From contig JADGDR010000011.1 of NCBI GenBank assembly GCA_016744795.1, positions 2,770-66,769 of the forward strand: a stretch of DNA of 64,000 nucleotides. The letters run 5' to 3'. The notes beneath the pieces were generated by a model. The model was not told where the DNA came from, ran no database searches, and was given only the letters and a program-made list of their open reading frames with translations. Shown here in pieces: positions 1,368-56,805 of the stretch; the stretch's first letter is position 1; every line of letters starts with the position of its first letter. Both the position numbers and the translations under genes were made by a program. The stretch comes from Sulfurospirillum sp. GTDB lineage: Bacteria > Campylobacterota > Campylobacteria > Campylobacterales > Sulfurospirillaceae.

Positions 1368-3181
1368 AAGTGTACCTCATCAAGTTTTTCCTTTGTCAAC
1401 GATATAAATTCGTCTTTTGTTAGATTATACTGTTTTCTCTCTCTTCTGTCTCTTAAAGCAACAGTTTTTTGTTCAACTTCTTCGTCACCTATTACCAAAA
1501 TCATCGGAACACGCATTTTTTCAGCGTTTCTGATACGTTTGTTCAGACTCTCATTTTTCATAGAAATCTCTGAATCTATATCATTTTGAAGCAATTCTTG
1601 TGCCAATTCTTTAGCATAAGCTTGATGTGACTCGGCAATTGGAACAATTACAACTTGTGTTGGTGCAATGAAAAATGGAAATTCTCCAGCTGTATGCTCA
1701 ATGAGAATTCCTATGAATCTCTCAAATGAACCAAGAATAGCACGATGAAGCATAACTGGCCGAGCATGTTCATTATTTGCATCAACATAACTTAAATCAA
1801 ATCTTTCAGGTAAATTATAATCTACTTGGATTGTACTACATTGCCATTTTCTTTTAAGAGCATCTGTTATTTTAACATCAATCTTAGGACCATAAAATGC
1901 CCCACCACCCTCATCAATTTCATAAGAAATATCGTTTTCATCAAGTGCGTCTTTAAGACCTTGAGTCGCAGCTTCCCAAAAACTATCATCACCTATTGCT
2001 TTTTGAGGTTTTGTTGAAATCATAATTTCGTATTCAAATCCAAATGTTTTCATAATATCTTCAACAAAAGCCAACATTTCTATAACATTTTCTTTTATCT
2101 GTTCAGGTGTACAAAAAACATGTGCATCATCTTGAGTAAACTCTCGTACTCTAAAAAGACCATGCATAACCCCACTCATCTCATGACGGTGAACAACACC
2201 ATATTCAAAAAACTTTAGTGGTAAATCTCTATAACTTCTAACATCATTTTGATAAACTTTTATATGTCCAACACAGTTCATTGGTTTCATTCCGTACTCA
2301 GAACCATCAATTTCTGTAAAGTACATATTCTCACCATAGTTATCATAATGTCCACTTATTTTCCAAGCATCCGCTTTAAGTATTTCAGGACCACGAACTG
2401 GCTGATAACCTCTTAATCTATGTGCTTTATAAAGACGCTGTTCTAGTTTGCTTCTTAAACGACTACCATTTGTTAACCAAATAGGAAGTCCGGCCCCAAC
2501 TTCTTCATCAAAAGTAAATAGCTTAAGCTCATTTCCTAGTTTTCTATGATCTCTTTTTTTAGCCTGTTCAATCATTAAAGAGTATTCTTTAAGACTTACC
2601 TTATCTGCAAATGCAGTTCCATAAATACGAGTAAGCATTTCACGATTTTCATCGCCACCTAGATAAGCTCCAGCAACACGAGTAAGTTTAAAAAATCTTA
2701 GATATCTTGTGTTCGGAACATGAGGTCCACGACATAAATCTTCAAAATCACCTTGTTTATAAGTCGAAACTTCGCCATCAGGGATACGAAGAAGAACTTC
2801 TTGTTTTAAATCATCATCACTAAACTGTTCTAAAACTGCTTTTTTAGTTGTACAGGTTTTTTCTATCGGAAGTTTTTTCTTTGCAATCTCTTGCATCTTT
2901 TTCTCTATAGCTTTTAAATCTTCATCATTTATCTTTTCGCTTACACGAAAATCATAATAAAAACCATCTTCTATAACTGGTCCTACAAAAAACTTTACAT
3001 CAGGATATAGCTCTTTGATAGCTTGTGCCATCATATGCGCTGTTGAGTGACGAATTACATGTAAGGCATCATTAGAGTTGTCAAATAAAACTTCTTTAAA
3101 ATTAGATTGATTTTGTGAAGAAACGCTTTGTGTGTCAGTTAGAGTTACGCCATCTCTATAGGCGATAACTTCGTTTTGCAT
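1364..3181 (-). CDS. thrS: Threonine--tRNA ligase
   Basis: 605-aa ORF. It has the class II aaRS core ([21 protein letters not shown]), a TGS/second-additional-domain N-terminus ([10 protein letters not shown]) and a C-terminal anticodon-binding domain. Confidence 0.97.
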
Positions 3182-3228
3182 TTTAATCCTTTACTAATAG
3201 AACTCCCAAACAACGGAAGAACGAAATA

Positions 3229-3304
3229 TGGTGGCCACGATTGGACTTGAACCAACGACCACTACCATGTCAAGGTAGTGCTCTACCAACTGAGCTACGC
3301 GACC
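3229..3304 (-). tRNA. tRNA-Val (anticodon GAC)
   Basis: The reverse complement reads GGTCGCGTAGCTCAGTTGGTAGAGCACTACCTTGACATGGTAGTGGTCGTTGGTTCAAGTCCAATCGTGGCCACCA. It folds by eye into a cloverleaf with anticodon stem CTACC/GGTAG, loop TTGACAT, a GGTTCAAGTCC T-arm and an encoded CCA. Confidence 0.93.
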
Positions 3305-3350
3305 ATATATTTTAAAACGTGATGATACTTAAAAACAACATAAAAAAGGC

Positions 3351-5397: not shown

Positions 5398-5850
5398 TTA
5401 ACCCTTAAAATCTTTAGATTTCCAATACGAAATTATAAGTATCAAAATAACAGAAAAGTTTATCATCACGTCAGCAAAATTAAACACTGCAAAACTAAAC
5501 CATTTATGCCAATAAAAGTAATCAACTACCCCACCATGAATAAATCTATCATAAAGATTACTGCACCCTGCTCCAAGTATAATTCCTGCTGGTAAAGAGT
5601 ACGTTTTAAAAACATCTCTATTAAATACCAAATAAATCAAAACTCCGCATAACAGAGCAACCTGAATATACTTAAGATTACCTTCTAAAAAAGAGAGCAT
5701 CGAGAATGCAACTCCTTTATTATATGTCAATATTAACGAAAAATAATCACCATACCACCTGAAACCTTCTAAAAAGATGGTTTTCAGATTTTGGTCAATA
5801 ATAAAAACACCTATAATAGCTAAAAGAAAAACTACTAACGATTTAACCAT
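5398..5850 (-). CDS. lspA: Lipoprotein signal peptidase (signal peptidase II)
   Basis: 150 aa with four TM segments and conserved LspA motifs ([20 protein letters not shown]). Its start overlaps the glmM stop. Confidence 0.9.
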
Positions 5851-7186
5851 TAAGCCTACTTTGAAGAAGCACCGTAACCTCTTGCATCATCTTTGCTAAT
5901 TGCTCTTCATTTTTCCCCTCTAGAAGTATACGCAGAAGGTTTTCAGTTCCTGAATAACGTATAAGTACTCTTATATTAAGTTTTTCTATTTTTTTAACTA
6001 ACTGTGTATATCCTTCAATCTTTTCAAGAGGTACTTTTTTCCCTACACTTAGGTTTTTTTGAAGTTGTGGATAAAGTTCAAATGGATTTAGAAGTTTGCT
6101 AACAGACTCTTTTTTTGTTAGTAAGTTTGCCATGACAGCAAGTGCAGCTACAAGAGCATCACCAGTTTTAGCAAAATCTGCAAGTATGATATGACCACTT
6201 TGTTCACCTCCAAAATTCAATCCCTCTTTTCTAAAAGTTTCAAGAATATACTTATCACCAACACTACATCTCAATAAATCTATGCCATTTGCATTTAGAT
6301 AGTCTTCTAGTGCTTGGTTGCTCATAACTGTTGCAACTGAACTATTTTTTTGTAATTTTCCATTCTCTTTTAGATACACACTTAGTGCTCCTATAAGTTT
6401 ATCGCCATGAATAACATCTCCATTTTCATCCACTACAACAAGTCTATCAGCATCACCATCAAATGCAAAACCTACATCTGCCCTTAGTTTTCTAACCTGT
6501 TCACCTAAGTTTTCAGGGTGAAGTGCTCCACAATTTAGATTTATATTGCTTCCATTTGGCTGATCATTTAATAAAACCACGTCAGCTCCAAGCTCACTAA
6601 ATATAGTTGGGGCTACTTTGTATGCCGCTCCATTGGCAGTATCTAAAACAACTCTAAATCCATGAAGCGTCAAGTTTTTTGGAAAAGAGTTTTTGATGTG
6701 CACAATATAACGACCGATAACATCATCAATACGCTTAGATCTCCCTATGCCAAAATCCTCTTTTTGATTCTCTTCAATCAACTCATCGCTATTATATATC
6801 TTTTCGATTTCAGCTTCTGCTTTTTCATTTAGCTTATTACCTTGTCCATCAAAAAACTTTACCCCATTGTCATAATATGGATTATGTGAAGCACTTATCA
6901 TGATTCCAGCATCGCATCTAAGGTCTTCTGTTAAAAAAGCTATTGCGGGAGTTGGCATAGGTCCAATTTGTCTTACATCATAACCAACAGCTGTTAATCC
7001 TGAGACAATAGCATTTTCTATCATATATCCACTTCTTCTTGTATCTTTTCCTACTATAATTTTATTATTTATTGAATTTTTACGAAAATATATCCCTGCT
7101 GCCATTGCTAGACGCATTGCATTCATAGCATTTAATTTTTTTCCAGCTCTTCCTCTTACACCATCAGTTCCAAAAAGTTTATTCAT
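5843..7186 (-). CDS. glmM: Phosphoglucosamine mutase
   Basis: 447 aa. It has the FGTDGVRG N-terminus, the active-site loop [15 protein letters not shown] and the metal loop FDGDADR. Confidence 0.95.
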
Positions 7187-7195: not shown

Positions 7196-7203
7196 TACAT
7201 GTA
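7196..7203. repeat. Intergenic copy of the iterated palindrome TACATGTA
   Basis: CCTACATGTAAAG read directly, 10 nt upstream of the glmM ATG and overlapping its AGGAAA ribosome-binding region on the minus strand. Confidence 0.8.
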
Positions 7204-8711: not shown

Positions 8712-9449
8712 TAAGCCCTTTATCTTCTGCTTCTCCACCATATCATAATATAAAAGATGATGTTCTTTCATCATCTTATGAAGCATATTCACATACTTTT
8801 CTCTAAGTTCAGAGTAGTTTACCATAGTATCAGCAGCTTCATATCCTGTAATAATCTTCCCCTCTTCTCTTTTTTGTAATCTTGCTTTTCTAAAGTTCTT
8901 ATATGCATAGTGTCTATTTAAATTTAACACATAGGCATCAACAGAGTTTTGCATGGTATTAAAAATACGTATTTTATGTGTTTTACCCTCTGTTCTACCT
9001 AGTGGAACGAGTCCAACCTCTCCCCAGGTCCAATGACCAAAAATATTGTTAGCTTCTCGCACAAAACGGCTTTTACCCCATCCACTCTCAATAGCACCTT
9101 GCACAAGAGAGAGAGGAACAGGTACACTATCTACTCTTTCGAGGTAGGTATCTCTATCAAATATATTTTTAACTCTATATTTTTTTGAAATAATCACAAG
9201 CTTTTTCAAATCATTAGGATTTAAAAAACGAAAACCTCCAAGAAGGGCTTTATTGAAAAAGTTTTTTATAAAAACTCTCTCTTTCATTGTTTTTTCATTA
9301 CTTTTATCAATTAATGGTTTTAATATATTGATAAATTCTCTTTTTTGTGTTTTTCCATTTAATTTATAATATGAATCTGGAAAACCTTTTCCAAAAAGTA
9401 AAACTGAACCACACGTAAGTCCGATTATGATTTTATATATTGGTTTCAA
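8706..9449 (-). CDS. Glucosaminidase-domain (Bax-like) exported protein
   Basis: 247 aa with a TTG start and a signal-like N-terminus. The segment [13 protein letters not shown]...NNIFG matches the mannosyl-glycoprotein endo-beta-N-acetylglucosaminidase/Bax (COG2992) signature. Confidence 0.7.
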
Positions 9450-10170
9450 AAACTTTTTTCACCTTACCTTTAAAAAATAACCGCTCCCCAGCAATTCTTA
9501 AATTTACCTCTTCTTTACTCGTTGGATATACTTTTGAGTTATCTCCAACAAAACCATCTACATGTAAAGAGTAAAAACAAGCCGCCATGCCCGTACCACA
9601 TGCACCAGTTTCATCTTCCACGCCACGTTCATAAGTTCTTACATGTAAAGAAGTTCCATCATTCAAAACAAAATTTACATTTGCATTATACTTATGTCTC
9701 ATCTTTGAAGCTAACTCTTTATCATACTCATCCAAACTCTCTACGACACTAACAAGATGAGGAACACCTGTGTCATAAAAGCTCCACTCTCTTCCCATAT
9801 CTGTAAATTTGTCTGCTAACATTAAAACTTCTGTTAACTCTGATTCTACTATATTGCCATCGACTAAAGAGCTTATCAAACCGGCATCAGTTAAAAATTT
9901 CATATCACTGTTAGCTAATCCATTAGCAAACGCATAATGAGCACAAGCACGAGATCCATTACCACACATTGCGGCCTGACTTCCATCACTGTTATAAAAA
10001 AGCCATTTAAAATCAGCCTTATCACTAGGAACAAGGACTATAAGTCCATCAGCTCCTACACCATTTTGTCTATGGCATAACTCCACTGCTAGTGCACTGT
10101 AATCTTGGTCTTTAAATGTATGGAAAATAACAAAATCATTTCCACTCGCGTTATACTTTGATACCTGCAT
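9433..10170 (-). CDS. dapF: Diaminopimelate epimerase
   Basis: 245 aa. It has ASGNDFV at the N-terminus and both catalytic Cys motifs (MCGNGSRA and GACGTGMAA). Confidence 0.93.
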   Translation of the reverse strand: MQVSKYNASGNDFVIFHTFKDQDYSALAVELCHRQNGVGADGLIVLVPSDKADFKWLFYNSDGSQAAMCGNGSRACAHYAFANGLANSDMKFLTDAGLISSLVDGNIVESELTEVLMLADKFTDMGREWSFYDTGVPHLVSVVESLDEYDKELASKMRHKYNANVNFVLNDGTSLHVRTYERGVEDETGACGTGMAACFYSLHVDGFVGDNSKVYPTSKEEVNLRIAGERLFFKGKVKKVFETNI

Positions 10171-10756
10171 ACTGCCCTCTTATATACTCTACAAACTTTT
10201 CTACTTCATTTTGTAGGTGTTTTAAATCAAATGAGTTATCTACAACCCAGTCTGCCATCTCTTTTTTTTTGTCTATGTCTATTTGTGCATTTACTCTTTT
10301 ATTCGCCTCATCTAAGCTAAATCCTTCACGATTTATTAGACGATCTAATTGTATATTTTTTGGAGTATAGACCACCATACTCATTTTACACTCATAATCT
10401 CCACTCTCAAAAAACAGAGGAATATCCATAAGATATGGAAGCTCAAACTTCTCTTTTAGTTTTGCTTGTCTATTTATCTCTGCTCTTACTTTTGGATGAA
10501 TCAAAGTATTTAGTTTCTCTCTTTGAGTAGATGAAGAAAAAATAATATTTGCTAGCTTTTTTCTATCTACCTCATTTACATCAAAAATCTCATCACCAAA
10601 TATTTCTCTTAGTTCACCCTTGCTTACTTCAAGTTGCTCTTTTGCAATCACATCTGCATCAATAACACTAAAGCCATGCATCTTTAAAAGTGAACAGACT
10701 GTACTCTTTCCAGTTGCAATTCCTCCGGTCATAACATAAGCGTGATTAAGTTTCAT
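10151..10756 (-). CDS. coaE: Dephospho-CoA kinase
   Basis: 201 aa with P-loop GGIATGKST, CoaE-like length and the IHP motif (LIHPKV). Confidence 0.9.
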   Translation of the reverse strand: MKLNHAYVMTGGIATGKSTVCSLLKMHGFSVIDADVIAKEQLEVSKGELREIFGDEIFDVNEVDRKKLANIIFSSSTQREKLNTLIHPKVRAEINRQAKLKEKFELPYLMDIPLFFESGDYECKMSMVVYTPKNIQLDRLINREGFSLDEANKRVNAQIDIDKKKEMADWVVDNSFDLKHLQNEVEKFVEYIRGQYAGIKV

Positions 10757-11286
10757 TAGTTTTTTTGAATTCCCAGTAACTCTTTTCTAAGACTTGTTGG
10801 AAGAGCAAAAGAAGCTAAATGAATTTCTGCATTGTAGTAACTCAGATCTTCAATCAAATCTGCACGTTGTAAGATTATATCGGCTGTTGGATGATATTTT
10901 TTAGTTGCTATTATTGCTTTCTTATCTTCAATTTTATATGTCATAACAATTCCAAATAAACTTCCAAAGTTAGCTAATGGAGTTTTTAAATCATCTGTTG
11001 CTTTTAAAACAACTAAACCATTTTTACGTAAAACTCTATTTATCTGAGCTACAAATGTTGGTTCATAAAATCTATCTGAATTTACTATAACCACGTCTAA
11101 TGAGCTATCTTTGGCACTCTCTATAGATGAAACATTATTACCAAGGTCTACATGTAAACCCTCGTATCTATCAATTTCACTATTTATATAATCATGACTT
11201 CCTAAAATAAATACATCTTTTGGTTCTTTATGTGTGCACAATGCAACGTGTGTTAGCATCTCAGCGTTTATAACATCTTGATTCAC
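10756..11286 (-). CDS. Spermidine synthase-like protein (short, degenerate SAM-site)
   Basis: 176 aa with a GTG start. EMLTHVALCTHKEPKDVFILG and the C-terminal YYNAEIHLASFALP resemble the SpeE core. The N-terminal domain and the GGGDGG-type motif are absent. Confidence 0.5.
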   Translation of the reverse strand: MNQDVINAEMLTHVALCTHKEPKDVFILGSHDYINSEIDRYEGLHVDLGNNVSSIESAKDSSLDVVIVNSDRFYEPTFVAQINRVLRKNGLVVLKATDDLKTPLANFGSLFGIVMTYKIEDKKAIIATKKYHPTADIILQRADLIEDLSYYNAEIHLASFALPTSLRKELLGIQKN

Positions 11287-11361: not shown

Positions 11362-12357
11362 ATGAGCACAGTAAGTTATAAAGATGCAGGCGTTGATATA
11401 GACGCAGGAAATCAGTTCGTAGAAAACATCAAACCTTTAGTAAAATCAACCTTTGATTCAAATGTAATAGGGGGGATTGGCTCATTTGCTGGTGCTTATG
11501 AGATGCCAACAGGATATAAAAAACCTGTTATTCTAGGTGCAACTGATGGAGTTGGAACTAAACTAAAATTGGCAATTGACTCTGGTAAATATGACACAGT
11601 AGGTATTGACTTAGTGGCTATGTGTGTTAATGATTTAATTTGTAACTTTGGAACTCCACTTTTCTTTTTAGATTACTATGCTACAAGTAAACTAGATATT
11701 GAAGCTTCAACTGCTGTTGTAAAAGGCATAGCTGAGGGATGTATTGAGTCAGAGTGTTCACTTATTGGTGGTGAAACTGCTGAAATGCCAGGAATGTATA
11801 ATGGTAAAGATTTTGATTTAGCTGGTTTTTCTGTAGGAATCGCGGAAAAAGATGAAATGAACCGCCTAGTTCATGTCAAAGATGGAGATATTCTAGTAGC
11901 ACTTCCAAGCTCAGGCATACACTCAAACGGTTACTCACTTGTTAGAAAACTGTTCTTTGATAAGTTAGACTATAAGTTCGATACAATAGTTGATGGTAAA
12001 CCTCTTATAGACATACTTTTAACTCCTACAAAACTCTATGTTAAAACATTTAAAAAATTAAAATCTAAAATAAACGCGTTAGCTCACATTACTGGTGGTG
12101 GTATAGTTGAAAACCTACCAAGAGTTTTACCTGAGAATATGCAAGCAGTAGTTTATAAAGACAAGATTAAGACTCTACCTATTTTTGATATTATGGCTCA
12201 ACATGTTGAAGAGAGTGAAATGTACAGAACTTTCAATATGGGTGTTGGTATGGTTCTCGTTGTAAGTCCCCAAAATGTTGATGATGTTCTAGCTTCGTCT
12301 GATGGATACGTTATTGGTGAACTAAAAGAGGGTGAGAAAAAAGCAGTAATGATTTAA
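11362..12357 (+). CDS. purM: Phosphoribosylformylglycinamidine cyclo-ligase (AIR synthetase)
   Basis: 331 aa. Motifs SYKDAGVDIDAGN, DGVGTKL and GGETAEMPG are PurM hallmarks. Confidence 0.96.
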   Translation: MSTVSYKDAGVDIDAGNQFVENIKPLVKSTFDSNVIGGIGSFAGAYEMPTGYKKPVILGATDGVGTKLKLAIDSGKYDTVGIDLVAMCVNDLICNFGTPLFFLDYYATSKLDIEASTAVVKGIAEGCIESECSLIGGETAEMPGMYNGKDFDLAGFSVGIAEKDEMNRLVHVKDGDILVALPSSGIHSNGYSLVRKLFFDKLDYKFDTIVDGKPLIDILLTPTKLYVKTFKKLKSKINALAHITGGGIVENLPRVLPENMQAVVYKDKIKTLPIFDIMAQHVEESEMYRTFNMGVGMVLVVSPQNVDDVLASSDGYVIGELKEGEKKAVMI

Positions 12358-13151
12358 TGAACACTGTCTATATAGTCTCAAAAATATTTACATATCTAGT
12401 GTTATCTCCGATTATTTTTATAATCTTTTTTTTGATTGCCTCTTTTTATGTTCAAAAATTTCGTATAGTTTTTGTGACTATTGCCCTATGTTTTTATGCT
12501 CTTAGTATTTCATACGTATCTAATACTCTATTATTACCTTTAGAAAAGCCTTATAATAGAGTTTTAGAAAAAAGCAACATGGTAAATGCTGTTGTTGTAT
12601 TAAGTGGTGGGAATATAGAAGGAAGTGCTAACATTCCCATGAAAAGTGATGCATATAAAAGAGCTATGTGGGGGCTGATGATAGCAAAATCTAAAAATTT
12701 GCCTCTTTTGTTCTGTGGTGCTGGACTTGAACTCTATACAGAAGCCGATGCATTTTTAGATAGCATGAAAGAGATAACAAACAATCTACATGTAGACATT
12801 CCAATCTCTTCATCTTTGACACTAAACTCTTTTTCTTTACATGTAGAAGATAGAAGTTTAGATACATATCAAAATGCACAATTTGCAAAAGAAGAATTTG
12901 ATGCTATTGGCATCAATAGACCTGTTATCTATCTTGTTACTTCTGCTTTTCATATGAGACGTGCAATCTTGCTTTATGAATATTTTGGATTTCAAGCTAT
13001 ACCAGCTGCTACAAGCTTTAGATTAGACGATAAAGCTCAAGAAGTAGGCATATTATCTTTTGTACCAAGTTTTAAAGCTTTAAATAATAGTTACATTGCT
13101 CTTCACGAATATGCTGGACTACTTAGCTTAATTTTAAGAGGTATTATTTAA
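12357..13151 (+). CDS. YdcF/DUF218 family membrane-anchored protein
   Basis: 264 aa with two N-terminal TM segments followed by a DUF218-like core (VVVLSGG ... LVTSAFHMRRA). The ATG overlaps the purM TAA (TAATG). Confidence 0.75.
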   Translation: MNTVYIVSKIFTYLVLSPIIFIIFFLIASFYVQKFRIVFVTIALCFYALSISYVSNTLLLPLEKPYNRVLEKSNMVNAVVVLSGGNIEGSANIPMKSDAYKRAMWGLMIAKSKNLPLLFCGAGLELYTEADAFLDSMKEITNNLHVDIPISSSLTLNSFSLHVEDRSLDTYQNAQFAKEEFDAIGINRPVIYLVTSAFHMRRAILLYEYFGFQAIPAATSFRLDDKAQEVGILSFVPSFKALNNSYIALHEYAGLLSLILRGII

Positions 13152-13670: not shown

Positions 13671-14081
13671 TTATGTTTTAATCACAGCTTTATTTTTAAC
13701 AATTTCAACATTTACCTTATCTCCATCTCTGTAAGAACTAAGATCATCATGAGTATTCCAATAAGTCCCTTCAAACTTTATCTGCTTTCCATCAATGGTG
13801 CCAATGCCCTTAATATGAATTCTCTCTTCTTTATTGCTGCTACTTCTTCCAAGTAATTCTATAAACTTTTTTCTAAATAACAAGGTAAAAGATAATCCAA
13901 TAACAAGAACTGTCGCTATCTGAGAGAAAAGACTTTCAAAATTTAAAACCCAAAGTTCCAAAAATGCAACTACTAAAAAACCTAGTCCAACAGGAAACAA
14001 AAAGAATGAAAGCATAAGAGACTCTAGTCCAACCAATAATATACCAATTGCTAAAAGCCACTCAAAAGACAAGGCTTCCAT
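13671..14081 (-). CDS. NfeD family membrane protein
   Basis: 136 aa with three N-terminal TM helices plus a C-terminal OB-like soluble domain (GTIDGKQIKFEGTYWN...GDKVNVEIV). It is translationally coupled downstream of an SPFH gene, the classic NfeD-SPFH pair. Confidence 0.75.
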   Translation of the reverse strand: MEALSFEWLLAIGILLVGLESLMLSFFLFPVGLGFLVVAFLELWVLNFESLFSQIATVLVIGLSFTLLFRKKFIELLGRSSSNKEERIHIKGIGTIDGKQIKFEGTYWNTHDDLSSYRDGDKVNVEIVKNKAVIKT

Positions 14082-15004
14082 TATTTTTTGTTTTTACCAA
14101 AAAATTCTGAGACCATAGATAAAGAACCTATAAGTTCCGTTGCTTCATAAGGAACGATTACCTTATCTTTAGAATCACTCTTTGCAAGCTCTTTAAATGC
14201 TTCTATTCTATCTTTAATCAAAAGATACTCCGCACTTGCTCCATTTTGATTCATTGCTTCATTTATCATATCCATTGCCTCTTTTTGACCTTCTGCCAAA
14301 GCAATTTGTTCATACTTCTGTGCATCTGCCATTCTCTCAATTGCTTCTGCTTCAAGTACTTTTTTTTGTTTTAACGCTTCTGCCTCACGTATTACAGCTT
14401 CTTTATTTGCTATAGCGTTAAGTTCTATCGCTCTTTTTTCTCTCTCGGCTTTCATCTGCATATTCATCGCTTCTTCTATTTCAGCGGGAACAGAAATATC
14501 ACGAAGTTCAACTCTCATAGTTTTTACACCCCATTTTTGAGTCGCCTCATCGAGTGCTAAAAGAATTCTTTTATTTAAAGTATCTCTTGAAGAGAGTGTT
14601 TCATCTAAAGCTAACTGTCCTATCTCCGCTCTTAAAGATGTAGTAGAAAGATTCGAAATTGCTCTTTTAAAATCAACTATACCATAAACTGCTTCTTTTG
14701 CTATTTCAACTTGAATAAAAACAATCCCATCAACAGAAATATTTACATTGTCTTTGGTAATTACACTTTGTTGAGGAATATTTATGATTTGTTCTTGTTT
14801 TGTAAGTTTGTCTCTTACACTATCTAAAACAGGTATTATTAAATGCAAACCTCCATCAAGTGTAGTATGGTACTTTCCTAGTCTCTCAATAACCCAAGCA
14901 TCAGCCTGAGGGACAATTTTAACACCTTTGTATATAATTATACCAAGTGCTACTATTAAGGCAATAGGGATAATCATACTTGGATCTATATTTTGTGTGT
15001 ACAT
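14081..15004 (-). CDS. SPFH/band-7 (stomatin-like) protein
   Basis: 307 aa with an N-terminal TM, an SPFH core (VPQADAWVIERLGKYHTTL, ITKDNVNISVDG) and an Ala/Glu-rich coiled-coil tail. Confidence 0.9.
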   Translation of the reverse strand: MYTQNIDPSMIIPIALIVALGIIIYKGVKIVPQADAWVIERLGKYHTTLDGGLHLIIPVLDSVRDKLTKQEQIINIPQQSVITKDNVNISVDGIVFIQVEIAKEAVYGIVDFKRAISNLSTTSLRAEIGQLALDETLSSRDTLNKRILLALDEATQKWGVKTMRVELRDISVPAEIEEAMNMQMKAEREKRAIELNAIANKEAVIREAEALKQKKVLEAEAIERMADAQKYEQIALAEGQKEAMDMINEAMNQNGASAEYLLIKDRIEAFKELAKSDSKDKVIVPYEATELIGSLSMVSEFFGKNKK

Positions 15005-15095
15005 GTATACTCCTCGAATTTTTATTTATTATACTATTAAAAATCTAACAAATAAGAAAAATAGTTTCTATCTTTGCTATTTTAAAATTGCTTTT

Positions 15096-20860: not shown

Positions 20861-20869
20861 AAAATAACC

Positions 20870-23744: not shown

Positions 23745-23864
23745 AATACTACCTCTAAATTTAGGCGATTGTACCCAAATTTTACTTACATATAGATTAT
23801 GTAATAATTATTCAGTAATTATTTTGCCTTTTTTTAGTATTATGAGAGAAAATAAAGAGTTAAT

Positions 23865-43438: not shown

Positions 43439-44110
43439 CTATTTTTTAGCGTCTGCATTGAAGTTAAAGTAAATATATGATGCCATATCTTCTGGATGGT
43501 ATTCCATACCTTTATCTTCTATCTTTTTTTGATTATGAGTCATTACTTCATTACCTGCTCCTGACGATTGAAAACCATCAGATTGTAAATCATATAACTC
43601 CATTTCAAGTTCATTCTTAGTCATGTCATTTATAGCAGGACCTTTTTTCTTAGGATTTCCCTGTGCGTTCATTCCATGACATTTTGAACACATTGTTTTA
43701 TATATCTCTGATACACTATAAGATTTAACATCCTTATTTGTCATACTTAACTTACTTTTATTTATTCCAAAAGTACTATAGATATATAAAGCCATATCAT
43801 CAGGATGATAAGTCATACCTTTTTTAATGATTTTTTTCTGATTATGTTCCATCACATCATGATCGCTTCCTGAAGATTGTGAACCATTTGCTACTAAATC
43901 AAAAAGTTCATAAGCCAACTCATCTTTACTCATATCATTAAGTGACGGTCCTTTTTTTTCAGGATTTCCTTCTGCATTCATACCATGACATTTTGAACAC
44001 ATTTGATAATAAATATCTGATACACTATACTGCTTTGCATGTGAAAAACTTACACAAAATCCAAGTATAAAAATCCCATAAAAAACTTTTTTATATATAT
44101 TAGTTTTCAT
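43439..44110 (-). CDS. Diheme c-type cytochrome (internally duplicated)
   Basis: There are two CSKCHG heme-binding motifs in two ~95-aa homologous halves, plus a signal peptide MKTNIYKKVFYGIFILGFCVSFSHA. I place the start at ATG 44108-44110, which overlaps the upstream TAA (TAATG), rather than the track's 44185. Confidence 0.85.
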   Translation of the reverse strand: MKTNIYKKVFYGIFILGFCVSFSHAKQYSVSDIYYQMCSKCHGMNAEGNPEKKGPSLNDMSKDELAYELFDLVANGSQSSGSDHDVMEHNQKKIIKKGMTYHPDDMALYIYSTFGINKSKLSMTNKDVKSYSVSEIYKTMCSKCHGMNAQGNPKKKGPAINDMTKNELEMELYDLQSDGFQSSGAGNEVMTHNQKKIEDKGMEYHPEDMASYIYFNFNADAKK

Positions 44111-45555
44111 TACGCTCTTCCTTTTAGCATCCCATAAAAGTACATAGGCTTGAGCATATAGACTTTTAAAATCCACCATATCCAACGCTCTTTTGTGGGA
44201 TCAAGTGGGAAAGATGGCGTAGGTTTTTTACTCCAATCAAACTCAGCAAGCATAACAGTACCAATACCAGTTATCAACGGACAAACCGTATATCCACCAT
44301 ACTTGGCACTAGGAGATTTACCCTCCATAACATCAATTAAGTTTTGGGCTGCAACTGTGTACTGTTTTCGCACACTTCCACCAGTCTTGCCCATTGGTAT
44401 TCCAGCAACATCACCTAAACCAAAAACGTTAGCATACCTTGTGTGCTGAAGAGTCTCTTTATGTAGTTCTACCCAACCACCTTTACTAGCACTTCCTCTT
44501 TGCCATGCTAATGGTGAAGCTTTAACAACATCAGGAGCACTCATAGGAGGTGTTACATGTAAAAAATCAAATGGAACATCCACTTGCTTAACTTGAGGAA
44601 TCATATCAAACTCTTCCAAATCAGCGTCCCACTCACCTTTTACTAGGTACTTATGATCAAAAGTAGCCATTTTTTTACCAATATCTACGGCAACTAAGTT
44701 ATGCTTATAGTGCCATTTCATATCACGAGCTTCAAACTGTTTTACTATAGCATCATGGTACTCAGGAACACCAAACATCTTTCCACCATTTGGATAAAAA
44801 GTTAAGGTTGCATTTTTTCTTGCATCTGCTTCTTTTAGACGAGCGTGAGTTAAATACATAATTTTTTTAGGAGCTCCACCGCATTTAATGGGAGTATTTG
44901 GATGAGAGAAAACTCCCTCAACTTTTTTTCCACTCTTTGCACTAGTTATAAATTCTTGCATAAGTGGCCAAGTTTTTGCAGCTCCTTCTGGAAAATAAAC
45001 CGAACTTATTCCATTTGTTCCAATAATATCACGACTTAAACCCTCTATCTTTTCATAGTTAAGTTGTAGTCCTGTTGCTACTATTAAAAAATCATATTTT
45101 ATCTCACCATTGTTTGCCGTTACTACTTTGCTGTGATCTGGATCAAACTCCACTACAGAGTCTTTTACCCACTTAGCTTCACTAGGTAAAAAGTCTTTAC
45201 TCTCACCTACTATATCTTCTGGATTCCAAACACCAGCAGCTATCAAAGTTTGCCCAGGTTGATAACTTACACTTTGTGGATTTGGTTCAATCACAGTAAC
45301 ATCGGGATTATTAAGTTTGTTTACAAGTAATGAAGCAATAGAACAACCAGCTGCTCCACCTCCTACTATAACAATCTTGGCTTTTATGTCAGAAGAGGCT
45401 ACAGCCTTAGTCGCTGCGCTTGCTTGGGAAGGATTTAGTAAAAATGATGCTGCACCAACGCCCGCTAGTTTTAATGCATCACGCCTTGATAATCCCCTCT
45501 TGATTAACTCCTGATCTAGCTGCTTACATATCTGATCAACATTATCTTCTATCAT
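44110..45555 (-). CDS. Tat-signal SQR/FCSD-family flavoprotein (type II SQR-like)
   Basis: 481 aa with a twin-arginine motif (LSRRDALKLAGVGAASFLL), the FAD fold KIVIVGGGAAG, PIKCGGAPKKIMY and GYTVCPLITG...LAEFDW motifs like SQOR/type II SQR, and an amphipathic Trp-rich C-terminus. Confidence 0.85.
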   Translation of the reverse strand: MIEDNVDQICKQLDQELIKRGLSRRDALKLAGVGAASFLLNPSQASAATKAVASSDIKAKIVIVGGGAAGCSIASLLVNKLNNPDVTVIEPNPQSVSYQPGQTLIAAGVWNPEDIVGESKDFLPSEAKWVKDSVVEFDPDHSKVVTANNGEIKYDFLIVATGLQLNYEKIEGLSRDIIGTNGISSVYFPEGAAKTWPLMQEFITSAKSGKKVEGVFSHPNTPIKCGGAPKKIMYLTHARLKEADARKNATLTFYPNGGKMFGVPEYHDAIVKQFEARDMKWHYKHNLVAVDIGKKMATFDHKYLVKGEWDADLEEFDMIPQVKQVDVPFDFLHVTPPMSAPDVVKASPLAWQRGSASKGGWVELHKETLQHTRYANVFGLGDVAGIPMGKTGGSVRKQYTVAAQNLIDVMEGKSPSAKYGGYTVCPLITGIGTVMLAEFDWSKKPTPSFPLDPTKERWIWWILKVYMLKPMYFYGMLKGRA

Positions 45556-45609: not shown

Positions 45610-48850
<3,241 letters not shown>

Positions 48851-48902: not shown

Positions 48903-50708
48903 TCAAAGTAAGTCGTACTTGTCTAAATTACACCCAATATATACCAAGAAATTGTCTTTTCCTTTTGTTTTTTCCATTTCTATAAATTCATATTTTCCAT
49001 TAACAAATTGAATAACAAATTGATTATCAAAATTTTTAAATTTTATAATTCCTTTGATTCTAAAAATATCTTTTGGTATAGCCTCAAGATATGATTTAAA
49101 AATATCTTTATCTATGGGTTCAAAAATATCTATTTTTTTACTAGATATCCCATCTTGTATATGTGTCCTTTCTAGTGGAGTTTCTTCTGTAAACATTGTT
49201 GAGATATGAGACGTACTTGATTTGATTAATCTTGCAGAATTAGCAATACTAGTTGGATTTATATCGCAATTTATGGTTTTAATTATATTTGCACATTGAT
49301 TGTTTGAGACTAAAAGATGTTCTACTTTTTTAATTTCTTCATTACTCATCAAGTCTATTTTATTAAGTAAAATAACATCAGCAGCTCTTACTTGATCTTT
49401 AAAAATAGCATATTTATCCCATAATTCAATTGCATTTACTCCATCAATTACACTGACAATAGAATCAAATTCTACTACATTATTTAATTCATTTAACTCA
49501 GAAAGAAGATTAAAAGGGTTAGCAACACCTGTTGTTTCAACTAAAATAGTATCAGGCTGAGAATTTTTCATTAGTGTGGCGACACCTGCTTTTAATTGCC
49601 CTGCTAAACTACAACAAACACAACCTTCATCAATCTCAACTAATGAATAATCATAGTTTAATAATTGTCCATCTAATCCAATTTTTCCAATCTCATTTTG
49701 AATAATGCCTACAAATCTATTTTTACTATTTTCATACTCTATATAATTTTGTAAAAATTTGGTTTTACCAGAGCCTAAAAAGCCAGTAACTAAGATTAAT
49801 TTAGGTTTTAAACTATTGTTAGAAAAAGTTTTATTATATTTTTCAAAATCTACTTTATTAGTTTTCCAACTTGATGATTCCAAAAAACAATGAAGTATAT
49901 TTGTATTTTTTAATCTTTTTTTTGTTTTTAAATTTGTCTCAAAATGTCTAAAATCAAACTTTCCATAACCAAGTGATAAAAATAAGTTAAAAACATCTGA
50001 ACTCTCCTGTTTTTCAAAAGAACCATCTTGTGAATAAGACACCACTTCGCTCTTAGTTTTATAAATCTCAAAGGAATCAGGTTTATCACCATTTATTCTA
50101 GTTAAAAGTGTATTGAAAAAATTGAAAAATTGTAACATTACTCTAAAAGCTGGAAAATTTTTATCTATACTAGATGGCTTAAGTATAAATTTTTCATTAG
50201 TAATATTATGCAAATCTAATACACCATCTTTTGTGTATGTTTTTTCTCTATTTTGCACTTCATAGTTTACATGTAAATTATTTTTTGTTTTATCTATAAA
50301 AAGTTTAATGCAACTAATATAGAAATTTTTTGTTAATTCTGGATAAGATGAAAATGATCTAACCTTTTCTATAAAATTCTCTTGTGTTGCTATATACTCT
50401 TCAAACAAAGAACATTTTGAGAGATATTTATCATCATTAGAAGGAAAATAATACAAGTTAAATTTTCCTAAATAACCATCACTTTTATCTTGTACATTTG
50501 ATAAAACTAATCCAAAAATTCCTTTAAAATTTTCAAATTTTAGTGTCCAACACTCTTGATTCTTTTCACAAAGATACATACCTTTGTAATCTGTTATTTT
50601 TTTTAATATTCCATCATAACTAGCCTTTATAAGCAGTGATCTCATGATAGAATTAAAAGCTTTACTAGAAGCATCGATTTTTGCAGGGTAAAAATCATTT
50701 ATATTCAT
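48903..50708 (-). CDS. COG0523 (CobW/ZigA-like G3E) GTPase fused to an unrecognised ~300-aa N-terminal domain
   Basis: 601 aa. The C-terminal ~300 aa carry P-loop GFLGSGKT, the metal motif GCVCCS, the NKxD-like LLNKIDL and a CobW_C-like end (IFRIKGII...). In the N-terminal ~300 aa I recognise no motif. Confidence 0.8.
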   Translation of the reverse strand: MNINDFYPAKIDASSKAFNSIMRSLLIKASYDGILKKITDYKGMYLCEKNQECWTLKFENFKGIFGLVLSNVQDKSDGYLGKFNLYYFPSNDDKYLSKCSLFEEYIATQENFIEKVRSFSSYPELTKNFYISCIKLFIDKTKNNLHVNYEVQNREKTYTKDGVLDLHNITNEKFILKPSSIDKNFPAFRVMLQFFNFFNTLLTRINGDKPDSFEIYKTKSEVVSYSQDGSFEKQESSDVFNLFLSLGYGKFDFRHFETNLKTKKRLKNTNILHCFLESSSWKTNKVDFEKYNKTFSNNSLKPKLILVTGFLGSGKTKFLQNYIEYENSKNRFVGIIQNEIGKIGLDGQLLNYDYSLVEIDEGCVCCSLAGQLKAGVATLMKNSQPDTILVETTGVANPFNLLSELNELNNVVEFDSIVSVIDGVNAIELWDKYAIFKDQVRAADVILLNKIDLMSNEEIKKVEHLLVSNNQCANIIKTINCDINPTSIANSARLIKSSTSHISTMFTEETPLERTHIQDGISSKKIDIFEPIDKDIFKSYLEAIPKDIFRIKGIIKFKNFDNQFVIQFVNGKYEFIEMEKTKGKDNFLVYIGCNLDKYDLL

Positions 50709-53411: not shown

Positions 53412-54545
53412 TTAAAGAGGTATCGTTACTAAAAACAAGGCACCTTCATCCTCATTTTTAACGTTTAATGAGCCTTTACAATTATGTTCTATAATTGTTT
53501 TTGACATACAAAGCCCCACACCAGTACCATCTTGAGTAATTTTTGTTGTAAAATAAGGATCGAAAATTTTATCTATAATTTTATTGGATATTCCACCTCC
53601 ATTGTCACTTATCTCAAAAATAGCACTATTGTTACTTTTATACGTTTTTATAGTTATAGTTGGAGTTTGTATCTTTTTTTCAACAAGTACATCTTCTGCA
53701 TTTTTTATTAAATTCAAAACAACTTGACCAATTTCATTGGCATAACTATGTATCGTTTCATTACATCTGTAATCAAGTTTTACAGATATATTGTTATTTG
53801 AGAGTATAGGAGTTACAATATCAAGTGTAGTATTTATAATCGTTTCTAAGGTTGTATACTCTTTTTGTTTATTTGGTTTAAAAAAGTTTCTAAAATCATC
53901 TATTGTTTTAGAAAGGTGTTTTGAGTAATCTTCAATATGTTGAAGCTCATCTATAAATTCATCTCTATTAAATTCATCTACTACTAATTTACCAAACATA
54001 TAACTTGTTGTAGCACTAATAGCAGTAAGAGGTTGCCTCCATTGATGTGCAATCATACTAAGCATCTCTCCCATTTTTGCCAAACGTGCTTGGTATTGAA
54101 GCTGTCTATCTTTCTCTCTTAAAACAGTTAACTGCTCTTTTATCTCTAAATTAAGCCTACTGTTTAAGTATTTTATCTCTTTTTCTACTTCCACTCTTTG
54201 TGTTATATCTGTTACTGTCCACAACACTTCATGATTTGATTCAATAGAGTCTCCTGCTATTCTTACCCAAAAATGACTACCATCTTTACGTTTAAATTCA
54301 TACTCCAAATTTAATGATTCATTATTTAATACCTTATCAAAAGCTATATTTGCGAAATTATCGAACCTCTCTTTTGATACATGTAGGTACTCTGCTGATT
54401 GGGGTATAAGCTCATCATAGGAATAGCCAAACATTTTACAAAGAGCATCGTTAACTTCAAGTATTTTTCTGTTTCGATCAACTATAAATATACCCACTCC
54501 ACTATTATTAAAAAGTTGTTCAAACCACTCTACTTTTTTTAACAT
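53412..54545 (-). CDS. Cytoplasmic PAS-domain sensor histidine kinase
   Basis: 377 aa with no TM segment. It has an N-terminal PAS domain (GIFIVDRNRKILEVNDALCKMFGY), an H-box SMIAHQWRQPL and N/G boxes (NLIKNAED, DNGGGI, GTGVGL). Confidence 0.88.
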   Translation of the reverse strand: MLKKVEWFEQLFNNSGVGIFIVDRNRKILEVNDALCKMFGYSYDELIPQSAEYLHVSKERFDNFANIAFDKVLNNESLNLEYEFKRKDGSHFWVRIAGDSIESNHEVLWTVTDITQRVEVEKEIKYLNSRLNLEIKEQLTVLREKDRQLQYQARLAKMGEMLSMIAHQWRQPLTAISATTSYMFGKLVVDEFNRDEFIDELQHIEDYSKHLSKTIDDFRNFFKPNKQKEYTTLETIINTTLDIVTPILSNNNISVKLDYRCNETIHSYANEIGQVVLNLIKNAEDVLVEKKIQTPTITIKTYKSNNSAIFEISDNGGGISNKIIDKIFDPYFTTKITQDGTGVGLCMSKTIIEHNCKGSLNVKNEDEGALFLVTIPL

Positions 54546-55258
54546 GCTTGTCTCAGATTTAGTTTATATCCTTGCGAATAGATTGATTGCATCAAATCAC
54601 AACCAACTCTGCATCTAAGTCGAGACAAAAGACTTCTTACTCTTTTGTTATCACTATAATCATCATCAAAAAGTGCTATTTCAATATCATCAAAACTAAC
54701 AACTCTATGCATTGAGGAAGCAAGAAGTTCGAATAAAATCTTCTCTTTTTTTGTTAATTGAATTTCCTTATCATCTTGATAAAGGTTTGTATTTATTTTG
54801 TCCCAATGAAAACCATTTATTAACTCTATTTTTGCATTTGATTCTTTAAGCTCTATTAATTTAAAAACTACTTTTTCTACTATTTTTTTAATCTCTTCAA
54901 AACTAAATGGTTTTAAAATATAACCATCAATACCACACTCAATTGTTTGCAAAAAATACTCTGTATTATCATATGCAGAAAATATCACTATAGGAATTTT
55001 TACGTCTGTTTTTCTTATCTCTTTAATCATAGATATACCATCCATAACAGACATATTTATATCGGTAAAAATTACATCAAACTTACTATTATTAAATTTA
55101 TCTAACCCATCTTTTCCATCAGCTGCCACGGTTACACTCTTAAAATAGATACTTAGCATCTTAGAAATTTGAGATCGTACCTCATAATCATCTTCTACAT
55201 ATAAAATATCTAACTCTTTACATATAGATATTAAAAACTTAAATCCTTTAGAATCCAC
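54539..55258 (-). CDS. Response regulator with winged-helix DNA-binding output
   Basis: 239 aa with a GTG start. The receiver domain has the acidic pocket (YVEDD), the phospho-Asp context (VIFTDINMSVMDG) and a conserved Lys (YILKP). The C-terminus is trans_reg_C-like (LTKKEKILFELL...GYKL). Confidence 0.88.
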   Translation of the reverse strand: MDSKGFKFLISICKELDILYVEDDYEVRSQISKMLSIYFKSVTVAADGKDGLDKFNNSKFDVIFTDINMSVMDGISMIKEIRKTDVKIPIVIFSAYDNTEYFLQTIECGIDGYILKPFSFEEIKKIVEKVVFKLIELKESNAKIELINGFHWDKINTNLYQDDKEIQLTKKEKILFELLASSMHRVVSFDDIEIALFDDDYSDNKRVRSLLSRLRCRVGCDLMQSIYSQGYKLNLRQAC

Positions 55259-55374
55259 AACTTACCTCTCTTCTTCTTTATAACAATATAAAATCATAAG
55301 AATATAAGACAATTTTGCTTAAAAACCATTTACTTTAATATGATAAAATCAATAATCACACCATAAGGATAATC

Positions 55375-56805
55375 ATGAAAAAAATTTCATTGCTGTTTCT
55401 AGCCTCTACTGTCGGTCTTATCGCCAATACTCAGGCTCTACATGTAAATTTAGATATTTATGCGAATAAATCATTTCTAAATAAAACTTTTGAATTAACC
55501 CAAACGGGAGAAATAAATATAAAAGTACCTACATACATTAATCTTAAAGACATAAGATACAAGATAGACAAACAGTGTCAAGTAGATAAGAGTCTCTTAT
55601 CAAATGTAAAAAAAGAGATAGATCCAAATATGGAAAATCTAAGAGAACAAAGAGCTAAAAAAGTTCTTGAAATTAAAGTTCTTAAGGCAAAAGGCTCTCT
55701 TTTTAAAACACTCTCATTAGAAAAAGTGGAAGACATGTCAAAAATAGATAAAATTTCATTATATCTAAGCAAAAACTTAATAGAAAACTTAACACACATT
55801 GCCAATCTTCAAAAAGAGATAATTAAAATAGATAAAAAATTAAAAGAAACAAACTCAATTAATGAAGAGTACAAAATACTTAAAACAGTATATACATGCA
55901 ACTCTACGCAAAAAGAGTTAAAAATTTCATATCCACAAGAAGGTATTAAATACACTCCTTATTACAATATAAGTGCAAATATCAGTAACAAATCTGTAAC
56001 TATAGAAAAAAAAGCAACTCTATTTTATAGAGGTGTAGAAAACTATCAAAATATAGATTTAAATATATACTCATATAGATATAATCAAAATGTAGCTCCT
56101 CAATACTTCTATCCAGAGTACCTAGGTCAAAAAAGAGAAGTACTCTATGCTCAAAAGGCAATGGCAATGAAAATGGATACTATGAAAGAATCAGCTATGA
56201 ATAGTCCCATAGTTCAACATGAAGAATTAGCTACAAAATCTGTATATAAAATCAAAGAAGCAAAGCTAAAATCTGGTGAAAAAAATCTTTTACATGTAGA
56301 CAAAGAGATTGTTGATGCTTCTTTTAAAACTACAATAGATGCTTATGGCTCAAACAAAGCCTATTTAGAAGCAATATTTAAAAGTAAAAAAGAGTATAGT
56401 GAAGCATATGCCAACTTCTTTTTAAACCAAAATCCAATTGCATCAAGATATATGGAAAAAATCCAAAAAAACAGAGAGACAAAATTATATTTTGGAGAAG
56501 ATGAACATATTCAGATAAAAAAAGAGTTAATTAAAACACTTGATGAAAAAACTTTTTTTGGTGACAAAAAAATCTCAACTCAAAACTGGGAATACACTAT
56601 CACAAATACAAAACCTTACAACACAAAAATAGAGTTTATAACAAGAGTTCCTGTATCAAAAGATGGTGATATAAAAGTTAAAACATTGGCACAACCAAAG
56701 TTTGATTCTCAAAATGCTGAAGGTAAAACAATTTGGAAGTTTAATTTAAACCCAAAGACGAATAAAAAAATCATCTTTGGATTTGAGGTTTCAAATAGTA
56801 AATAA
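55375..56805 (+). CDS. Secreted DUF4139/MuiA-like protein
   Basis: 476 aa with a signal peptide, an N-terminal beta-rich segment, a central coiled coil, and a C-terminal pattern (VPVSKDGDIKVK...GKTIWKFNLNPKTNKKIIFGFEV) resembling the DUF4139 family. Confidence 0.65.
   Translation: MKKISLLFLASTVGLIANTQALHVNLDIYANKSFLNKTFELTQTGEINIKVPTYINLKDIRYKIDKQCQVDKSLLSNVKKEIDPNMENLREQRAKKVLEIKVLKAKGSLFKTLSLEKVEDMSKIDKISLYLSKNLIENLTHIANLQKEIIKIDKKLKETNSINEEYKILKTVYTCNSTQKELKISYPQEGIKYTPYYNISANISNKSVTIEKKATLFYRGVENYQNIDLNIYSYRYNQNVAPQYFYPEYLGQKREVLYAQKAMAMKMDTMKESAMNSPIVQHEELATKSVYKIKEAKLKSGEKNLLHVDKEIVDASFKTTIDAYGSNKAYLEAIFKSKKEYSEAYANFFLNQNPIASRYMEKIQKNRETKLYFGEDEHIQIKKELIKTLDEKTFFGDKKISTQNWEYTITNTKPYNTKIEFITRVPVSKDGDIKVKTLAQPKFDSQNAEGKTIWKFNLNPKTNKKIIFGFEVSNSK

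Follow-up and report, generated by a model that had tools for sequence, protein, structure and literature searches.

A palindromic octamer resembling HIP1 and DNA uptake sequences is hyper-abundant in Sulfurospirillum of the Campylobacterota

Two kinds of short word are known to recur in bacterial genomes at about one site per 1–2 kb: the highly iterated palindromes (HIPs) of cyanobacteria, comprising HIP1 (GCGATCGC) and lineage-specific 'alternate HIPs', and the DNA uptake sequences (DUS) of Neisseriaceae and uptake signal sequences (USS) of Pasteurellaceae. HIPs are perfect palindromic octamers with weaker symmetric extensions, over-represented 15–300-fold both inside and outside genes and built around a classic Type II restriction–modification target (CGATCG/GATC in HIP1). 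Their orthologous sites are better conserved than those of control words, and periodic spacing on a scale of 10–90 kb is counted among the traits of the class. Genomes with HIPs tend also to have the cognate methyltransferases (PMC4390886); natural transformation rises >100-fold when HIP1 is methylated (bioRxiv 10.1101/2024.09.10.611283), and HIP1 abundance co-varies with DNA-uptake machinery (bioRxiv 10.64898/2026.06.24.733823). According to such recent work, HIPs and uptake sequences may be one phenomenon. DUS and USS are asymmetric words found in both orientations, with a strict core, weaker flanks and core-sharing dialects; they accumulate by point substitution, favour tolerant reading frames and less conserved proteins, stand in an equilibrium of gain and loss, and occasionally form terminator-like hairpins after stop codons. 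Here we describe a comparable element in the Campylobacterota, the palindromic octamer TACATGTA, which occurs 29 times in 64 kb of a metagenomic Sulfurospirillum of the S. arcachonense clade (contig JADGDR010000011.1; G+C 31.8%). This 64-kb stretch is referred to below as the window.

Within the same phylum, DNA uptake by Campylobacter jejuni requires methylated RAATTY (CtsM), a palindromic motif that marks self DNA when methylated. RAATTY is short, common by composition and not hyper-enriched, whereas the 8–14 bp of TACATGTA needed a 20-fold enrichment. In Helicobacter genomes CCGG is over-represented (Kr ~1.4–1.5), for which no explanation has been given (Rusinov et al. 2015, PMC4687349). 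It resembles TACATGTA in being a palindromic site of the restriction–modification type that is over-represented rather than avoided in Campylobacterota, but its excess is mild beside the 20–27-fold of TACATGTA, and it is a 4-mer with known restriction–modification systems. Full-text literature searches returned no description of hyper-abundance of TACATGTA or ACATGT in any bacterium, in keeping with the sequence-only reading in which the word was first noticed, whose author, a model, was likewise aware of no such element.

A pattern search and an independent regular expression agree on the 29 copies, which are exactly those that had been counted by eye. Dinucleotide-preserving shuffles of the window lead to an expectation of 1.46 copies, with a largest value of 5, and Markov models to 1.4 (order 1) and 1.1 (order 3), so the 2–4 copies guessed from composition in the sequence-only reading were too many. 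Among all 8-mers of the window TACATGTA ranks first, with an observed-to-expected ratio (O/E) of ~27 under the order-3 model; ranks 2–9 are overlapping extensions of it, and no other palindromic octamer in that ranking departs from expectation. The hexamer ACATGT occurs 40 times, and 29 of the 40 carry the T...A flanks, as the manual tally had it. Where restriction avoidance would appear as under-representation of the site, TACATGTA is enriched 20–27-fold. The observed count lies far above every expectation, including those of the codon-preserving models described below, which had been proposed together with the Markov models as checks, and the enrichment reported from sequence inspection is real, being confirmed exactly.

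Genome-wide statements in what follows are extrapolated from the window and from related loci of two neighbourhoods, which add up to ~1.2 Mb. A metagenome scan with NrdD gave 80 loci (74–93% identity). The pooled sets are 24 motif-rich loci (420 kb), 44 zero-copy loci (620 kb) and all non-rich loci (n = 51). The best genome matches of a window protein are metagenome-assembled genomes (MAGs) of the S. arcachonense clade, at 84–87% amino-acid identity, and for the NrdD of the window ENA metagenome scaffolds encode a protein of 100% identity.

The word acts at the level of DNA rather than of peptides or codons. Of the 29 copies, 27 (93%) lie inside genes among the 58 open reading frames (ORFs) used for this analysis; permuting the codons of each gene leads to an expectation of 1.5 copies, and 500 synonymous shuffles that hold the proteins fixed to one of 6.8 ± 2.2 in-gene copies, with a maximum of 14. 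Twenty copies are read as Leu-His-Val (LHV), seven as Thr-Cys-Lys/Asn (TCK/N) and none as TAC-ATG-TA, so that no copy occupies the TAA-containing frame, and 2 of the 29 fall outside ORFs. LHV is the most over-represented tripeptide of the window (21 against 2.3 expected), and TCK is enriched as well (7 against 0.9). Of the 21 LHV tripeptides, 20 are encoded xTA-CAT-GTA, for which codon usage predicts ~16%; the remaining one uses CTCCATGTT. About 5% of the His codons and 3% of the Cys codons of the window fall within the word. The word thus both biases codon choice and alters amino acids, and it is a property of duplex DNA, not of peptides or codon usage. The coding context had been described correctly to the copy in the sequence-only reading, as had the two copies at the starts of glmM and of the SPFH gene, and Pfam bears out its names for the host genes (thrS, glmM, dapF, a HemY-like amine oxidase, SPFH, rarA, nrdD, nrdG, pcm and recJ); its statement that every LHV is encoded by the motif holds for 20 of the 21 and fails for the one that uses CTCCATGTT.

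The recognized unit extends beyond the octamer. In the window 19 copies match TYTACATGTARA, 7 TTTACATGTAAA and 2 TCTACATGTAGA, and three are CTTTACATGTAAAG 14-mers (beginning at 26593, 26808 and 39621); each of these tallies had been made by eye and is exact on recount. The flanks are symmetric: of the 58 half-sites, 55 have Y at −1 and 47 have T at −2. Among the 196 sites of the pooled motif-rich loci, the 30 that lie outside any ORF of at least 100 codons share the TT...AA flanks (T at −2 in 26 of 30, A at +2 in 23 of 30). Because these non-coding copies carry the same symmetric flanks, the unit is a dyad of 12–14 bp, (C)TTTACATGTAAA(G), around an invariant 8-bp core, and similarity among copies stops after 12–14 bp.

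Recognition of the 8 bp is strict, as one-mismatch variants of the core are not enriched in the window or in the pooled motif-rich and zero-copy loci. In the same sets no class of one-mismatch neighbours is depleted beyond noise, and the C>T variant TATATGTA occurs 10 times in the window against 4–7 expected, with a pooled O/E of 1.0. ACATGT is the most enriched palindromic hexamer of the motif-rich loci, and nearly all of its excess has the T..A flanks. In four loci (L018:3646, L019:3646, L020:3674 and L024:3703) the site sits in a perfect 20-nt palindrome, GAGCTTTACATGTAAAGCTC, directly 3′ of a stop codon and followed by a T-rich run, an arrangement that resembles a terminator hairpin with the motif at its centre. 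At a few further sites the dyad lengthens to 8–11 bp on each side.

Sites are made and lost by substitution rather than insertion, because in all 34 orthologous comparisons with four syntenic relatives (L001–L004) codon pairs with codon and no indel intervenes. This, together with the 12–14-bp extent of the similarity, rules out repetitive extragenic palindromes, miniature inverted-repeat transposable elements and other inserted repeats. A transcription-factor regulon is ruled out by the proportion of copies inside genes and by their number, ~1 per 2 kb.

Existing sites are protected. In the S. arcachonense clade the word is kept in 39 of 51 site comparisons, compared with 16–32% of control 8-mers in the same frames and 26–41% of control 8-mers whose amino acids are also conserved. 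Identity at four-fold degenerate third positions is only 48–67%. In other Sulfurospirillum groups (73–77% amino-acid identity) 12 of 44 sites are conserved, compared with 5–10% of controls. By these counts, which are not phylogenetically independent, the retention of a site is 2–3 times that of equivalent 8-mers, and conservation at orthologous positions, another check that the sequence-only reading had proposed, is found at both levels of divergence. Among near-identical strains (L211–L214, 99.5% nucleotide identity) all 11 shared sites are intact, which says little about protection, as only ~0.4 hits would be expected. Over ±60 nt around shared sites, nucleotide identity equals that around control conserved 8-mers of the same genes; conservation is therefore confined to the word and reflects neither recent import nor a locally constrained protein, and recent recombination as the source of site sharing is ruled out by the same comparison. 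The sites are thus individually protected yet turn over between species groups, and what is maintained is density, not single sites.

Creation of sites runs against the proteins that host them. Where one relative has the word and another lacks it, the alternative differs at 1–7 of the 8 positions, with a mean of ~3.6; this is far above background divergence, and creation or decay therefore passes through several substitutions. At column 863 of the nrdD alignment TACATGTA arose independently in five lineages (L017, L055, L063, L064/L066 and L075) from AACAAGTAA-like sequences, replacing T-S-K by T-C-K. At column 1370 almost every one of the 81 sequences has the residues Y/F-L-Y-K, whereas the window and one other locus (L011) have changed to F-T-C-K. 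Protein constraint in turn counteracts site creation: the less conserved half of genes, with 39% of the length, holds 16 of 21 sites (p = 7e-4), and there are none in the highly conserved rplT, infC, prfA, pyrG, rnj, nrdA, nrdB, purB and purM. A directional force thus creates sites against protein-level selection, and the sites that exist are protected. The proposal in the sequence-only reading, that selection or spread acts on the DNA word itself and local protein sequence follows from it, accordingly gains support from the codon-preserving shuffles, the LHV excess and its near-exclusive codon choice, the symmetric flanks of non-coding copies, the word-confined conservation and the convergent NrdD replacements.

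The longest motif-free stretches of the window are 18676–26595 (7.9 kb), which spans very conserved housekeeping genes (rnj, ksgA, hisF, rlmN and others) and fits the effect of protein constraint, and 56299–64000 (7.7 kb), which spans an oligopeptide ABC transporter operon.

The four syntenic relatives carry 3–15 copies in 12–21 kb each, and the unrelated gammaproteobacterial loci examined have none. In a single-gene, neighbour-joining tree of NrdD, one coherent clade, which includes the window and all sequences named Sulfurospirillum or Sulfurospirillaceae, is almost uniformly motif-rich (2.5–10 copies per 10 kb; G+C 29–40%). The 24 motif-rich loci together hold 196 sites, at an O/E of ~22, and a density of ~1 site per 2 kb extrapolates to ~1,300 sites in a genome of ~2.9 Mb. 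In a second large clade, which contains the Sulfurimonas-named L034 and L054, most lineages lack the word; sequences named Halarcobacter/Arcobacter (L060) and Arcobacteraceae (L044) also fall outside the motif-rich clade, and the word is absent from Arcobacteraceae. The 44 zero-copy loci have no site, a zero partly built in by selecting them for having no copy, and all 51 non-rich loci hold 13 sites against 13.9 expected under a maximum-order Markov model.

Scattered enrichment within the Sulfurimonas-containing clade (L041, L052, L055/L056, L063 and L064/L066) is in each case nested among zero-copy relatives. Sulfurimonas sp. RIFOXYD12_FULL_33_39 (L041) has 22 ACATGT in 22 kb, mostly as ACATGTA half-sites. 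A 12.2-kb metagenome contig (Ga0193961_1000741; L075) has 14 ACATGT, mostly GACATGTC/T flanked, and a single TACATGTA; this GACATGTY has the look of a dialect in which the hexamer core is shared and the outer bases differ. Either TACATGTA or an ACATGT-based dialect was thus gained independently in a few lineages of the Sulfurimonas-containing clade whose sisters lack it.

The enrichment stands on a background of avoidance. In the Campylobacterota loci (L001–L004 and L011–L090) CATG is in general mildly under-represented. Its order-2 O/E is ~0.63 for the motif-poor loci and, once motif copies are excluded, 0.72 for the motif-rich ones, and the ratio drops to 0.27–0.4 in some lineages of the Sulfurimonas-containing clade. 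The remark in the sequence-only reading that CATG-type sites are normally avoided thus holds for these loci (O/E 0.6–0.7), and the deficit would fit widespread CATG-specific restriction in the phylum. An order-2 hint of specific ACATGT avoidance in motif-poor lineages was rejected, as the maximum-order model shows only the general CATG deficit.

Set beside the known systems, TACATGTA shares with HIPs a palindromic octamer form with weaker symmetric extensions, an over-representation above the 15-fold that is the least seen among HIPs (O/E ~27 in the window and ~22 in 420 kb, the genome-wide figure being extrapolated), occurrence in coding and non-coding DNA, conservation of orthologous sites above controls at both divergence levels, a core that is a classic Type II target (ACATGT/CATG) and, in GACATGTY, a counterpart to the alternate HIPs. 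It is not HIP1 itself, because both word and phylum differ; further, the word is AT-rich in a genome of ~32% GC, it recurs in scattered fashion in a second family, and its one-off variants show no preference for the outer positions of the kind described by Elhai for HIPs. With DUS and USS it shares a short word at ~1 per 1–2 kb with core and flanks, made by substitution and limited by proteins, a preference for tolerant reading frames, dialects around one core, a balance of gain and loss, and the occasional terminator-like hairpin; unlike them it is a palindrome and has no strong intergenic bias (2 of 29 copies in the ~5% of non-coding DNA). The comparison with HIP1 and DNA uptake sequences drawn in the sequence-only reading is thus apt as a resemblance. 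We conclude that TACATGTA is a real element of the HIP1/DUS class with a new word in a new phylum, to which a putative function can be ascribed by analogy.

By that analogy, TACATGTA may mark self DNA through a link with methylation, promote its uptake and/or recombination, and owe its spread to drive and selection, a reading that we adopt tentatively and rate at a little under an even chance. The strict core with graded, symmetric flanks would be read by a homodimeric, sequence-specific protein, and the patchy distribution suggests that the determinant is horizontally mobile, restriction–modification methyltransferases being the obvious class. The word would then act as a 'self' tag, plausibly methylated in its CATG/ACATGT core, and would favour uptake and/or recombination of conspecific DNA as HIP1 or DNA uptake sequences do, spreading by molecular drive and selection against purifying selection on proteins. 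A bolder version, possible but on balance doubtful, is that TACATGTA/TTTACATGTAAA would be a palindromic methylation-dependent uptake/recombination signal, the first uptake-like element in Campylobacterota, whose determinant (a methyltransferase and/or a receptor) would have moved between Sulfurospirillum and Sulfurimonas.

Several observations weigh against a self tag. Pfam revealed no gene for a methyltransferase, for restriction or competence or for a candidate DNA-binding protein among the 58 ORFs of the window (49 covered by a Pfam scan and 9 through Pfam labels on identical L211 genes; 4 of the 58 have no Pfam match). A regular-expression search for DPPY/PCQ methyltransferase motifs in the Campylobacterota loci examined, which is a weak test, was also negative, so that, unlike for HIPs, no cognate methyltransferase was found in the window or related loci. 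Natural competence of Sulfurospirillum is not documented in the literature searched, and known uptake sequences are asymmetric whereas TACATGTA is a perfect palindrome. Spacing looks random (coefficient of variation 0.91–0.95 within the window and in pooled loci) and therefore gives no evidence of positional function. Finally, a tailed-phage fragment (L191; IMG/VR) has three sites in its terminase and portal genes, an occurrence that transformation-based drive does not specifically predict.

Much of the same evidence can be read as the trace of repair rather than of function. Under Elhai's model for HIPs, the word would be a functionless by-product of biased repair linked to a methyltransferase: an ACATGT- or CATG-specific enzyme, with methyl-directed nicking and repair, would ratchet near-sites to the full palindrome. 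ACATGT is indeed the top enriched palindromic hexamer of the motif-rich loci, its excess nearly all T..A, the patchy distribution fits a mobile methyltransferase, and the contig with the same hexamer and other flanks (L075) fits an inner methylation site with outer bases set secondarily (PMC4390886). Against this, one-off neighbours are not depleted, alternatives to a site differ from it at a mean of ~3.6 of 8 positions, and convergent creation took several changes, including amino-acid replacements. A simple C>T ratchet of the very-short-patch type is rejected outright, since TATATGTA is not depleted and new sites need changes at several positions. To our knowledge, moreover, Campylobacterota such as Helicobacter and Campylobacter are without MutS1/MutL mismatch repair. 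Conservation of sites above controls is in addition, for Xu et al., a sign of selection rather than replenishment (PMC5861425), and we consider biased repair improbable, if still the strongest of the alternatives. Slightly less probable again is the view that Xu et al. take of HIP1, in which the copies would be binding sites of an abundant nucleoid-associated or chromosome-organizing protein and be kept for chromosome structure. Homodimeric DNA-binding proteins typically have such 12–14-bp dyads, strict in the core and graded in the flanks, as their sites, conservation is limited to the word, and sites occur in coding and non-coding DNA; yet ~70% of individual sites are not shared at genus scale, their spacing within 64 kb is indistinguishable from random, and a candidate protein was not found in the window or related loci.

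The density of 1 per 2 kb, the location inside genes and the lineage specificity also recall Chi, and a Chi-like role has been proposed for HIP1 (bioRxiv 10.1101/2024.09.10.611283); the word would then modulate an AddAB/RecBCD-class nuclease or protect or activate linear self DNA. Known Chi sequences are asymmetric and strand-biased, however, whereas TACATGTA is a perfect palindrome with symmetric flanks. The 20–27-fold enrichment is also far above that known for Chi, and we hold such a signal to be quite unlikely. What the evidence refutes is selection at the level of protein or codons (a functional Leu-His-Val, or codon-pair bias) and chance or composition: 20 of the 29 copies do read L-H-V, but the near-exclusive xTA-CAT-GTA spelling far exceeds the ~16% predicted, the second frame, T-C-K, is enriched too, the flanks recur around non-coding copies, the word is hosted by unrelated proteins whose orthologues elsewhere carry different residues at the sites, and no shuffle approaches the observed count. 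The shuffles, the NrdD convergence and the non-coding flanks together exclude this explanation.

Viral contigs were also scanned, with CTTTACATGTAAAG; most matches are single, chance ones, and the viral occurrences do not discriminate between the hypotheses. On one IMG/VR contig (L112:330–560; 3300012979_000276; GC 28.5%) a dense array of CTTTACA half-sites, direct and inverted, yields five TACATGTA in 180 nt. From its arrangement it looks like an iteron or operator array of a phage contig, unrelated to the word; the ORFs beside it gave no informative PHROG matches. A second contig (L163:1–11868; IMG/VR) has seven sites in a 6-kb defence-like island (PLD nuclease, Mrr-type endonuclease) and none in the adjoining IS256-family transposase and inovirus module (Zot, secretin), and a third (L170; IMG/VR) has sites in its integrase and none in its inovirus genes.

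The 29 sites are listed in the table. Two further features of the window were noted. Between nrdD and nrdG, a separate 53-aa ORF (36527–36688, +) is called on identical contigs, with a weak match to NRDD (PF13597); it overlaps the nrdD stop and the nrdG start, an arrangement kept in a further locus (L215), and the C-terminal piece of NrdD may be encoded separately there. Between thrS and a histidine kinase gene, 3129–3267 (+) is a full-length match to the Rfam family HPnc0260, a Helicobacter pylori antisense RNA family (66.8 bits; gathering score 59), and this putative RNA is partly antisense to tRNA-Val(GAC) at 3229–3304 (−).

Table. Copies of the palindromic word in the window, with the host gene (coordinates and strand), the peptide read from the word and the state in syntenic relatives.
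Sequence	Position	Host gene or context	Peptide	State in relatives
TACATGTA	3056–3063	thrS (1364–3181, −)	A-L-H-V-I	
TACATGTA	7196–7203	intergenic, 10 nt upstream of glmM start (5843–7186, −)		
TACATGTA	9559–9566	dapF (9433–10170, −)	L-H-V	kept in L002, L003
TACATGTA	9640–9647	dapF (9433–10170, −)	L-H-V	kept in L003; TATATGTA in L002
TACATGTA	11149–11156	ORF (10756–11286, −)	L-H-V	TACACGTA in L002
TACATGTA	12787–12794	DUF218 gene (12357–13151, +)	L-H-V	kept in L002, L003
TACATGTA	12838–12845	DUF218 gene (12357–13151, +)	L-H-V	kept in L002, L003
TACATGTA	15000–15007	internal ATG is start codon of SPFH/Band-7 gene (14081–15004, −)		
TACATGTA	15687–15694	HemY-like amine oxidase gene (15096–16427, −)	L-H-V	kept in L002, L003, L004
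TACATGTA	15729–15736	HemY-like gene (15096–16427, −)	L-H-V	kept in L001, L002, L003; TATATGTA in L004
TACATGTA	16088–16095	HemY-like gene (15096–16427, −)	T-C-K	kept in L001–L004 (4/4)
TACATGTA	18515–18522	rarA/mgsA (17942–19129, −)	L-H-V	
TACATGTA	18668–18675	rarA/mgsA (17942–19129, −)	L-H-V	L-S-N in L003, L-T-K in L004 (4–5 nucleotide differences, no indel)
core of 14-mer CTTTACATGTAAAG	26596–26603	FAA-hydrolase gene (26365–26976, −)	L-H-V	
core of 14-mer CTTTACATGTAAAG	26811–26818	FAA-hydrolase gene (26365–26976, −)	T-C-K	
TACATGTA	31722–31729	Zn-dependent dehydrogenase gene (31706–32686, +)	L-H-V	
TACATGTA	32845–32852	AraC-family regulator gene (32744–33499, +)	T-C-N	
TACATGTA	34154–34161	Asp/Glu racemase gene (33496–34188, +)	L-H-V	
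TACATGTA	35786–35793	nrdD (34422–36530, +)	F-T-C-K	Y/F-L-Y-K in nearly all other lineages
TACATGTA	37261–37268	nrdG (36666–37361, +)	L-H-V	
core of 14-mer CTTTACATGTAAAG	39624–39631	PAS-GGDEF gene (38308–40656, +)	T-C-K	
TACATGTA	41956–41963	CN-hydrolase gene (41741–42469, +)	T-C-K	
TACATGTA	42702–42709	pcm (42466–43119, +)	T-C-K	
TACATGTA	44554–44561	FAD oxidoreductase gene (44110–45555, −)	L-H-V	
TACATGTA	46948–46955	recJ (45610–47190, −)	L-H-V	
TACATGTA	50268–50275	CobW-like GTPase gene (48903–50708, −)	L-H-V	
TACATGTA	54378–54385	PAS histidine kinase gene (53412–54545, −)	L-H-V	
TACATGTA	55439–55446	DUF4139 gene (55375–56805, +)	L-H-V	
TACATGTA	56291–56298	DUF4139 gene (55375–56805, +)	L-H-V	

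HIP1 was for three decades an unexplained peculiarity of cyanobacteria and has only lately been tied to transformation that depends on methylation. A palindrome just as extreme that arose independently in another phylum would open a second route to the role of such words, with several cultured Sulfurospirillum species, sister lineages with and without the word, and convergent gains at identical codons. It is also a case in which a force at the DNA level strongly overrides protein sequence, and TACATGTA can serve as a marker when these MAGs are binned and classified. Should the word prove to act in transformation, it would also help in the design of transforming DNA. And if a methylation-dependent signal has indeed moved between Sulfurospirillum and Sulfurimonas, the same word would have been imprinted on unrelated genomes, with conserved protein residues rewritten in the process, and HIP1 and the TACATGTA element would be two independent inventions of one mechanism.

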